A DNA stretch of 64,000 nucleotides from Polyangiaceae bacterium (GTDB lineage: Bacteria; Myxococcota_A; Polyangia; Polyangiales; Polyangiaceae): assembly GCA_016712345.1 (NCBI GenBank), contig JADJRH010000002.1, positions 328,466 to 392,465 on the forward strand. The letters are read 5' to 3'. The position numbers are program-made. The first letter of the stretch is position 1; each line of letters opens with the position of its first letter. This document shows, piece after piece, positions 42,001 through 45,000 of this stretch.

Positions 42001-45000
42001 AAATACCCCTAGAGTATCGAAACACGTCGCTTAGCGCACTATTAATCAGACTTGGATTTCTGAGAAATCCTTGGGAACAAGGGAGCCGGAAAACGGATTC
42101 TTAACCACCCTCCAGAACAGCGGGTATTCGATAGAGCACCCCCGAGCTTCGCCAATTCCGCCGACCCTGAAATCCTCCCCGATATTGACGTTGCCACCCT
42201 CGGCAAACGCACCCAATGGGTAGAGGGGGCGGGCCCTCGACCTGAGCGAACACTTGGGAGGCTGAGCTTTATACTACCATTCGCCGACCGCCCGGCGCGG
42301 CACAGAACGTGGGTCGCGCGGGCGTGCGCCAGACGGACCGGCATTGGGGTTGGTATTTAGACCTCACGTGAGCTGCGAGGGTAGGCGACAACCAACGGCG
42401 GGAAGTGACGCGGTGGTGAGCAATACCGGCGGCCTCCCGCCCGCGTCGAGCGAGCACGCGAGTCTGCGAGCGCGCGCAAGCTCGCCGGGCTTGGGGGCCA
42501 GGAGGCGCGAAGCGCCGAGCACACGGTCGGTGGCGAGCGGGTATACCCCACGGCCGCAGCGATCTATACTTGACCTACAGCTCGCCTGACGGCCTCGACT
42601 GCTTGCCCCGTATCGGTGATCACCATCTCCGCGGACAACCGCAGCACGGTGTACCCCAGCCGCTTAAGCGCCCTATTTCGCCGCTCGTCTGCCCGCGACC
42701 GGGCGCTGTGATACCCACCATCCACCTCCACGACCAGCCGCACGCTCGGAGCGCAAGAGTCCACGATACAAGGGCCAATCACCACCTGACGCCGAAACAT
42801 CACGCCGACCTGACTACCCCTCAGCGCCCCCCACAAAGATCGCCTCGCTCGTTGTCGGAGTGGCACGCATACGCCGCGCATGCCCGAGAAGACGCGTACA
42901 CTTTGATCTACCCATGACAGCCTCCAAGGCCCGCCGGAATGGCGGGCGACTGGAAGCGCAGGATCTATGACGCGCCGCAACCTTACCATGATGGCCCCGT
43001 CCACCCCTTTCCACTCGACTCCAACCATCCAACTCCCACGATCACCAAGCGGCGCGGCATAGAGCGTGCGCGTTTGGCTGAAGCCCGCCATTCCAAGGGC
43101 CTGCAGAGCTGGCATGGGTAGATGCCACTCGGGTTTCGAGCGCGCGACTCGATTCGCCATTCGGCTGCAGGCCATCTACCCATGGCGTGAGCGCAGTCAT
43201 CACGCACGCGACAATCATCTTACCCATTACTTAACACCTACCCATCTACCCATACCGCATTAGTCACCCACCGCGCAGGGCCTCCCGCCCGCGCCCCGCG
43301 AGCACGCGAGTCTGCGAGCGCGCGCAAGCGAGCCGGGCTTGGGAGGCCAGGAGGCGCGCAGGCGCGAAGCGCCGAGCACACTGCCGGTGGTGGGCAGGCC
43401 TCAAATGCGAATGGCCGACTTGGGAGACGGTGGCACCGCGTATTATACCTACGATGCCGGCAGCGAAAGGGTCAGAAAAGTCATCCAACGCATCGGCACC
43501 ACCAAAGAGGAGCGAATCTACCTTGGCGGTTGGGAACTCTACCGCAAACGCCAGGGTGCCAATCAAGAAGTGGTGTTGGAACGCGAAACCTTACACCTGA
43601 TGGATGACACAAGACGGATTACTATGGTCGAAACAAAGACCATCGACGCCGATGTGTCAGGTCCATTGACCATCGTCCCAAGGGCCTCGTCATTTCGTAT
43701 GAAGAAGTGCACCCTATGGAACACCCGCTTATCGAAGCGCAAAATCGGGGGTGGAGGTCAGCGAAAAACGATTCAGGTACACCGGTAGAGAACGCGACGA
43801 CGAAACCGGATTCCAGTACCATTCGGCCAGGTATTACGCCCCGTGGTTGGGTAGATGGACCACCGCCGACCCCGCTGGAATGGTGGATGGGCCTTGTTTG
43901 TACGGCTATTGCCGCGATCAACCAGCCAGCTTGAATGACCCAAGTGGCCTGGAAACACCAAAGACTGGCACAGTCAACTATCAAATTATGACCATGACAG
44001 ACGCCCAACTTCACGCTCACATGAAGAGCCTAAGCGCTGAAAACCTAGGGACGTTTATCGACGGGGCATCCGGTGCGTTTCTGGAGAGAGTACAAGCGAT
44101 GCGGGCCCACTACCCAATGACAGCAATTCAAACGGTGGCGGAGGTGCAAATTGAGGCAGACCCTCGTCGCCTTGGTGATGTTCAATTTGCTGAAAGTCAT
44201 GGTCGATTGATGACTGAAGTCGTGAAGCAACTAACCGATGCCCTGCCCCGTAACATCATTGTCGGCGGCGATGCGGCATACAAATCCAAAGTTCGTTTTG
44301 ACCTCGCTTTTCTCCAAACAACACCGAGCGGGGCGGAGTTACTTGATCGATTGGCAGAAACGGGGAAGCCCATTCTTATTGAACCGCCAACCGCTGCCAT
44401 TTTTAGCAATTCAACCCGGGATGCGAGTATGGAGCTGAGACTGGACCGAGGAGCGGCTGTTCTGCGCGCGATTGAAGGGCTTCTGCGAGGGATGCCTCTC
44501 AAGGAGCGAAGTAGGTTTGTGGAGGACTGGTGGCCCTGCGGGGCGGAAGCAATGGCCAGCCTACCTGACTCTTTGCGGGAGGAAATGGAGCTATACGATC
44601 AACCTCACCACAGTGTGATGGACCGGCGGTATGATCCGTTGGTGGTGCTCGCTCTTCAGCATCGTTTCCGCGGCGCGAGAAATGACTACATTCGCGAGTT
44701 ATTGAAGGAGTTGGAAGGGGCCGACACCTTCATCTCGGGCGCACCGGAGAGGCTGGTAGATTGTCCCTGCTGCGGCTATTTGACACTGGATCGACGGGGC
44801 GAATATGACATTTGCGCTGTTTGCTTTTGGGAAGATGATGGAAGCGTTGACCCCGTTCGATACAGTTCAGTAAATCACATGACATTGGGGGAGGGGCGCG
44901 AACATTTTCTTCGCGTTGGGGCCTGCGAGGAGCGCCTTATCGAGAAGGTTGTGCCAAACGGCCACCGCATGTTTCACCATATCCGTGAAGCGGTCTGATT

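Follow-up and report, generated by a model that had tools for sequence, protein, structure and literature searches.

Probable remains of a second TcB-TcC toxin gene, with an orphan CPCC immunity-type gene, in a Polyangiaceae bacterium

Organisation of the locus

The window analysed here is a stretch of 64,000 nucleotides (nt) from a Polyangiaceae bacterium (GenBank assembly GCA_016712345.1, contig JADJRH010000002.1, positions 328,466 to 392,465 of the forward strand), in which a large toxin gene of the TcB-TcC type is followed by a shorter Rhs-type sequence with a different tip. The subject of this report is the open reading frame (ORF) 43751-44998 in that shorter sequence, where the end of an Rhs core shares one open frame with a cysteine-rich CPCC domain. 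The whole region 42163-44998 probably represents the remains of a second TcB-TcC (Rhs-type) toxin gene, comprising a dead toxin remnant and an orphan immunity gene. The features that support this assignment are listed below in window coordinates.

40128-40682, plus strand: 3' end of the main Rhs/TcC core, repeated in the orphan (within ORF 39312-41813; blastn 82% and 86%; TIGR03696 Rhs_assc_core at residues 392-471)
42163-42224, plus strand: 62-nt TcB paralogous fragment (main-gene codons 35503-35564, DPExLxDIDVxTLGKRTQWV; blastn 80.6%, E 4e-10)
42225-43403, no strand assigned: second copy of an insertion element, the first being in the main TcB at 35581-36256 (repeat copies at 42431-42541 and 43236-43403)
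42564-43115, minus strand: DUF559 (Vsr-like endonuclease) gene in the element, between the repeat copies (Pfam PF04480, E 4e-21)
43404-43676, plus strand: Rhs core fragment A, frame 1, starting exactly at the right end of the element (dN/dS 0.10, dS 0.86)
43677-43681, plus strand: junction of the 58-nt deletion, 63 nt (40391-40453) being replaced by 5 nt
43682-43951, plus strand: Rhs core fragment B, with a base missing after 43714 and DPSGL at 43937-43951 (blastn; TIGR03696; TcC/Rhs chains in the PDB; dN/dS 0.14)
43952-44428, plus strand: toxin stub, a pretoxin linker and the first 50-60 or so M91 positions, no HExxH (identity to a Polyangium protein, P0001; M91 profile; phmmer homologs; alignment A7)
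44429-44998, plus strand: complete 189-residue two-domain immunity-type gene, with an N-terminal helical domain and a CPCC zinc-ribbon (44759-44956), starting at ATG 44429

The main gene, 33979-41813, is a TcB-TcC type fusion composed of SpvB, TcdB_toxin_midN/midC, RHS repeats and an Rhs core, and in the assembly its frame is broken at no fewer than four places. The SpvB profile is split between 34687 and about 34900 (profile positions 1-78 and 153-287), where a 49-nt tandem duplication occupies 34767-34864; an insertion of about 676 nt is found at 35581-36256; a frameshift lies near 37500-37560; and 38945-39285 is occupied by about 340 nt of foreign sequence.

The orphan Rhs core fragment

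Downstream of the large ORF 39312-41813, after about 1.5 kb, come the ORFs 43339-43788 and 43751-44998; the orphan core begins 1.6 kb past the end of the main SpvB-TcdB_mid-RHS gene. The presence of an Rhs/TcC C-terminal fragment at this position was confirmed by blastn of 41800-45300 against the window and by alignment with MAFFT. Two blocks of similarity were obtained, 43414-43676 with 40128-40390 (263 nt, 81.7% identity, E 2e-70) and 43682-43909 with 40454-40682 (229 columns, 86.5% identity, E 1e-73), giving about 84% overall. The initial annotation of this DNA had recognised the repeat, but its identity of more than 85% to 40130-40560 was somewhat too high and its length of about 140 codons too short, the copy reaching 40682 and spanning about 180-200 codons. 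The frame break that it attributed to a deletion of about 75 bp is present in the sequence as assembled, with a different size: the 63 nt of the main copy at 40391-40453 correspond to 5 nt in the orphan, a net loss of 58 nt, and one more base is missing after 43714. Therefore the three pieces of the core sit in three different frames.

Residues 1-69 of ORF 43751-44998 match the main protein with 80% identity and end at DPSGL. Residues 5-67 correspond to the Rhs-associated core domain TIGR03696 (E 7e-20), with DPSGL at 63-67, and TcC/Rhs chains in the PDB match the same core end with E values of about 1e-15. The fragment thus carries an Rhs-associated core domain with the PxxxxDPxGL ending of TcC/Rhs proteins; of the complete RHS/YD repeat array that forms the shell, about 180 core codons remain, distributed over three frames. 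The GTG start at 43751 is a mechanical call, located inside the Rhs core and devoid of an initiation signal. No protein similarity to the main gene was found past DPSGL, and the tip indeed differs from the main one, as had been proposed.

The ratio of nonsynonymous to synonymous substitution rates (dN/dS) between the orphan and main cores was 0.10 for fragment A (dS 0.86) and 0.14 for fragment B. Such low ratios at a dS of about 0.9 point to a long divergence as translated genes and therefore to a recent origin of the disabling lesions.

The TcB fragment and the insertion element

The main TcB codons 35503-35564, which correspond to the 62-nt fragment, stand just before the insertion at 35581. 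The 168 nt that close this insertion (36090-36256) recur at 43236-43403 with 89% identity, and a partial repeat copy at 42431-42541 matches 36132-36251 with 87% identity; the left ends of the two element copies show a weak similarity (GGCTsrGCTTTATAC). In the main gene the right end of the element (...GGGCAGGCCTCA) is followed by the TcB codons HDTYVFF, and at 43403 it is followed directly by the Rhs core codons QMRMADLGDGG. The region 42163-43403 is collinear with 35503-36256, and about 3.86 kb (36257 to about 40117) are therefore missing next to the element end. The TcB fragment, the element and the position of the element end at the 5' border of the orphan are better explained by the decay of a second TcB-TcC paralog than by a cassette exchange that displaced a tip, the "displaced cassette" of the first description.

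The protein encoded by the DUF559 gene is 100% identical to a 183-residue "DUF559 domain-containing protein [Polyangiaceae bacterium]" (P0155), and a search with it returned ordinary single-domain homologs of 100-130 residues and no sign of a multicopy element. The repeat copies of the element are 84-89% identical, against about 50% at the synonymous sites of the host genes, and are therefore younger than the gene duplication. No Rfam family was found in 33500-46500 or in either element copy when group I and II introns and other RNAs were sought, the 168-nt repeat, when folded as RNA, gave z = -0.8, and no inverted repeats were present at the element. A reading of the insertions as eukaryote-like introns was rejected, the frames being incompatible with it and the source being annotated as a bacterial metagenome-assembled genome (MAG).

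The insertion of 0.7-1.2 kb might represent a site-specific mobile element not yet described, which remodels Tc/Rhs loci and makes orphans by deletions beside its end, with the CTACCCATG motif as its part or control. This idea arises because the insertion occupies nearly the same site in two TcB paralogs, contains a DUF559 gene, is similar in its two copies and forms with its right end the exact 5' border of the orphan. We regard it as rather unlikely; if the element did create orphans, it would add a mechanism to "rearrangement hotspot" biology.

The 8-mer CTACCCAT is present in 24 copies in the window, against 0.58 expected, and 14 of these lie in 33972-45072. It usually reads aTCTACCCATg, is often accompanied by a degenerate second copy 10-30 nt away, and sometimes overlaps plausible starts, namely those of TcB (33979), of the DUF559 gene (43115, also the NCBI start) and of 29723 on the minus strand. 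The 8-mer was not enriched in 114 other loci, two Polyangiaceae loci included, and no longer consensus was found.

The toxin stub

When the whole ORF was used as the query against 5.8 billion proteins, one match reached past the Rhs core, an "M91 family zinc metallopeptidase" of Polyangium sp. rjm3 (P0001). Its identity to ORF residues 1-212 is 50%, and the similarity goes no further. The Pfam M91 domain of this protein comprises 171 residues (profile positions 6-173); the orphan tip matches profile positions 4-49 of 176 with 16.8 bits, below the cut-off of 25. An exhaustive phmmer search with residues 69-226 against 1.84 billion representatives yielded 21 matches, and all nine tested matches that cover residues 157-217 or thereabouts proved to be PAAR-Peptidase_M91 effectors.

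The aligned M91 homologs (alignment A7) run about 120-170 residues further, through ...YNPD...PPQVGLxHELxHA..., a part that is missing from the window sequence. The zinc-binding motif HExxH, present in all aligned homologs, is absent from ORF 43751-44998 on direct reading. Since the homologs continue through the HExxH region and the stub does not, the tip is, to judge from these alignments, a pretoxin linker followed by the opening quarter of an M91 (NleD-type) metallopeptidase, with the zinc site missing, and the toxin is presumably dead. The toxin domain of about 250 residues seen by the initial annotation is thus replaced by about 160 residues of linker and truncated M91 lacking the HExxH half. 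The stub resembles Peptidase_M91 effectors on Rhs/PAAR carriers in that residues 157-217, approximately, can be aligned to the beta-rich N-terminal beginning of M91, and it resembles the Polyangium Rhs tip in its linker (50% identical). Unlike these effectors, it retains about 50 of the 176 profile positions, gives no full-length profile match, scores below the Pfam threshold and has no HExxH, so that it is classified as a remnant of the family only.

In the Polyangium sp. rjm3 locus (L001, 2495-7074) the M91 tip ends an Rhs fragment split by an insertion sequence (rve transposase). Upstream of this fragment stands a 2367-residue SpvB/TcdB/RHS gene, and after it comes a HEAT-repeat gene, a layout that resembles a main gene plus a broken extra copy.

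The immunity-type gene

Residues 337-402 of the ORF belong to Cys_rich_CPCC (Pfam PF14206; 79.4-81.1 bits against a cut-off of 24.5, E 1.8e-22), which upholds the earlier recognition of a CPCC-family sequence at the end of the frame. The repeat, the deletion, the different C-terminus and the CPCC match all lie far outside what chance could give. A search with residues 206-415 among the 5.8 billion proteins gave 14 proteins, all annotated PF14206. The best match (P0121, 126 residues) is 100% identical, and four proteins of 186-199 residues (P0122-P0125) show 38-48% identity over 78-89% of the query, with the alignment starting at Met227, that is, at nt 44429. The sequence GGGA lies 7 nt before this ATG. 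Scans of 185,579 genomes and of Joint Genome Institute (JGI) metagenomes, analysed with custom hidden Markov models (HMMs), provided 50 loci with the two-domain CPCC form, and in 49 of them an in-frame stop is found at most 55 codons upstream of the gene; the sole exception (L097) has 112 open GC-rich codons with no recognisable similarity. The GC content at third codon positions (GC3) is 0.48 for the stub and rises abruptly to 0.61 in the immunity gene. The starts of the homologs, their upstream stops, the GC3 change and the GGGA sequence therefore identify the supposed toxin-plus-CPCC fusion as a complete gene of 189 residues, starting at 44429, whose upstream in-frame stop codon has been lost.

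In structure prediction with AlphaFold2, residues 227-415 alone fold as one compact unit (pLDDT 95.4). Alignments A4 and A6 show no variation at C112, C114, C129 and C132 (CxCC...CxxC) or at W134-G138 (the WEDDG motif), and hardly any at C115. The CPCC domain is a true member of PF14206 with the fold of a solved contact-dependent inhibition (CDI) immunity protein, and the view that CPCC proteins are stand-alone proteins of the immunity type is sustained by PDB entries 8EY3/8EY4 and by the synteny of the homologs. By analogy, the synteny and the names of these PDB entries suggest that such proteins may neutralise a cognate toxin by binding. Compared with the immunity protein in 8EY3/8EY4 (E. 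coli O32:H37), the window protein possesses an extra N-terminal helical domain of about 105 residues, for which no structural match was obtained. Literature searches on CPCC, PF14206, 8EY3 and 8EY4 returned no relevant paper.

Since the toxin half lacks HExxH and the immunity gene is intact and in frame with it, the "fusion" joins a presumably dead toxin stub with an orphan immunity gene. Observed as such were the homologies and the truncation, together with the boundary of the gene and the homologs' synteny.

The partner toxin of two-domain CPCC proteins

At 21 of the 50 loci the two-domain gene begins 2-7 nt after the stop codon of a gene ending in one conserved domain of about 105 residues, a domain encountered upstream of none of the 65 short CPCC-only homologs. 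Its consensus is WKGF..L..H.EKHG.EFG.ITQ.EYL..A..F....FKE..VGNF.VKYDP.T.R.LVGH...R.IRTFYK.D.R..DPF.AA. and it is found, among others, on PT-HINT proteins and on proteins of 1419 and 1833 residues, from Paenibacillus, Clostridium, Thermoactinomycetes, Burkholderiales and others. Examples are L012 (about 5650-5981), L002 (5160-5482), L008, L010, L013, L015, L018, L023, L024 and L032, at which the two-domain CPCC gene always lies within 2-7 nt after the toxin domain. No Pfam family matched the WKGF domain, and neither tblastn nor a six-frame HMM search found it in the window.

Two-domain CPCC homologs never follow M91 at the 50 loci, and an M91 stub joined to a CPCC gene was not found in the 5.8 billion proteins, the 185,579 genomes or the JGI metagenomes. 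On this comparative evidence the closest relatives of the immunity gene are partnered not with M91 but with another toxin family. The WKGF domain and the two-domain CPCC protein apparently constitute an undescribed toxin-immunity pair, at best distantly related to PDB 8EY4; the toxin resembles 8ey4_A weakly (E 0.41).

Alternatively, the M91 toxin and the CPCC protein could have been a cognate pair, from which one internal deletion took the distal M91 half and a short spacer. The adjacency would then be simple and a single deletion would account for the structure; moreover, in polymorphic toxin systems an immunity family can be shared by more than one family of toxins. This explanation is nevertheless unlikely in view of the different conserved toxin directly before the two-domain gene in 21 of the 50 loci, with M91 in none, of the HEAT-repeat gene, not a CPCC gene, that follows the closest M91 tip (P0001), and of the GC3 discontinuity at the junction.

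The main tip and related sequences

The main tip (40723-41813) consists of 362 residues, comprising a Pro/Ala-rich linker, a Gly-rich hydrophobic segment and a C-terminal part of about 150 residues. It is followed by an ORF of 89 residues (41835-42104), which has an unusually low GC content of 0.485 and belongs to no family; it may be the partner of the main tip. Neither the tip nor this ORF gave a Pfam or PDB match, and an ADP-ribosyltransferase reading drawn only from motifs was set aside. No TcA gene adjoins the main gene, and the upstream gene (29923-33636) encodes an HrpA-type helicase.

In a sister Polyangiaceae MAG, a 5.2-Mb contig encodes a protein of 560 residues (P0002) that begins inside the Rhs core (MVAMPHLANVEYTHSDQMRVADLGGGG...). 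Its core end is 91% identical to that of the main gene, with the orphan-like substitutions GANQEVV, DADVSG and CLFGYCR, and leads into a third, unrelated tip of 339 residues. These sequences suggest mosaic recombination among core ends in this lineage.

Comparison with orphan toxin-immunity modules

Orphan rhs-CT/rhsI modules, like their orphan cdiA-CT/cdiI counterparts, lie downstream of a main rhs gene (Poole 2011, PMC3150448; Koskiniemi 2014, PMC3967940). The sequence studied here resembles them in its position downstream of a main gene, itself frame-broken in the assembly, in the 5'-truncated copy of the core 3' end without initiation or export signals of its own, in the different tip and in the immunity-type gene at the 3' end. 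It differs in three respects. A complete alternative toxin domain is lacking, the tip holding M91 positions 4-49 of 176 and no HExxH. There is no separate ORF for a cognate immunity protein, the immunity-type gene being in frame and its family being paired elsewhere with another toxin. Finally, the core contains internal frame-breaking deletions, and the remnants of TcB and of the element indicate the decay of a whole gene.

The classical architecture, with its downstream position, its 5' truncation and homology blocks of 195-263 nt, would also suit a functional displaced rhs-CT/immunity cassette that keeps an intact toxin-CPCC tip silent for recombination with the main TcC (PMC3150448, PMC3967940), and the third tip of P0002 on a 91%-identical core end indicates that tips vary and recombine in the lineage. 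Such a cassette is very unlikely here. About two thirds of M91 is missing, HExxH included, and the CPCC part is a whole separate gene, preceded by a stop in 49 of the 50 loci; moreover, the 58-nt deletion falls inside the core homology, the main gene is interrupted at a minimum of four places, and recombination would yield a gene for a toxin stub with an immunity protein attached. The proposal that the orphan is a substrate for swapping TcC tips is accordingly retained in part: the core blocks could in principle still recombine with the main gene (PMC3967940), but the product would be a dead stub joined to an immunity protein on a broken main gene.

Another parallel is offered by orphan immunity genes such as those described for Serratia Rhs NADase immunity (PMC10539506), where an intact gene without a functional cognate toxin is likewise found in a toxin locus. 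The window gene differs from these in having no separate ORF boundary, its upstream stop being lost, and its protective role is a putative one. The remnant is a decayed orphan module of the rhs-CT/rhsI type with a retained orphan immunity gene and represents nothing categorically new.

Origin of the remnant

The favoured explanation, to which we give a good deal of credence, is that a second TcB-TcC gene once stood downstream of the main one and decayed. Its leftover pieces would be, in order, the 62-nt TcB piece, the insertion element with its endonuclease gene, the last 180 or so Rhs core codons, the M91 stub and the immunity gene. The core remnant would have been cut at its 5' end exactly at the element end and then broken by the 58-nt and 1-nt deletions. 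The long ORF 43751-44998 would have arisen by accident, when a deletion or recombination removed the rest of the toxin together with any stop codon. Only the immunity gene would be likely to work, translated from its own ATG at 44429, and the orphan protein could then bind and neutralise incoming toxins of the "WKGF..H.EKHG.EF" family, as CdiI proteins do with theirs. The order of events, the expression and the protective function are what we infer from the sequence.

Several observations weigh against this explanation. Every junction, namely 43403/43404, 43676/43682, 43714 and 44428/44429, is taken from a single MAG. On its right, the toxin deletion stops within a few codons of the ATG of the immunity gene and leaves the frame undisturbed, which is a coincidence if the region is a remnant. 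No intact version of the module was found in any relative in the genome and metagenome scans, so that the parental arrangement is a reconstruction from sequence. No promoter-like site was detected upstream of 44429, promoter and terminator counts being no higher than in shuffled sequences, and the gene is therefore only presumed to be expressed. The link of the WKGF toxin profile to 8ey4_A, with a common H..KHG.EF motif, is weak at E 0.41.

The source genome being a MAG, an assembly or sequencing artefact was also considered for the repeated element, the M91-CPCC junction or the 1-nt deletion, since a repeat that occurs three times ends exactly at one of the borders and the main gene has several frame breaks. 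We consider it most unlikely: a 58-nt deletion, the borders of a 168-nt repeat and insertions of several hundred nt are atypical of base-calling errors, the repeat copies at 84-89% identity are easily spanned and distinguished, and the boundaries of composition and homology are sharp and biologically coherent. Scarcely credible is a selected chimera, in which the in-frame product (stub and immunity protein, or Rhs end, stub and CPCC) would serve as a decoy, an anchored immunity protein or cargo: 226 open codons do precede the immunity start and the frame is kept across the junction, but no homologous fusion was found in the 5.8 billion proteins, 185,579 genomes or JGI metagenomes, and the GTG at 43751 is an unsignalled start inside the core, in an open frame such as is expected in a recently inactivated gene.

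Significance

ORF 43751-44998 is a product of ordinary toxin-locus decay and not a new toxin-immunity fusion, and annotating it, or following it up, as a new fusion toxin would be unwarranted. Points of modest interest are the mismatch between the families of the stub and of the immunity gene, the link between the two-domain CPCC proteins and their toxin, and the unexplained insertion element with the CTACCCAT motif. The WKGF toxin/two-domain CPCC pair, widespread in Paenibacillus and other bacteria, is a testable toxin-immunity system. The locus illustrates a mode of decay of Rhs/Tc loci in which the immunity gene outlasts its toxin and modules of different origin become neighbours.

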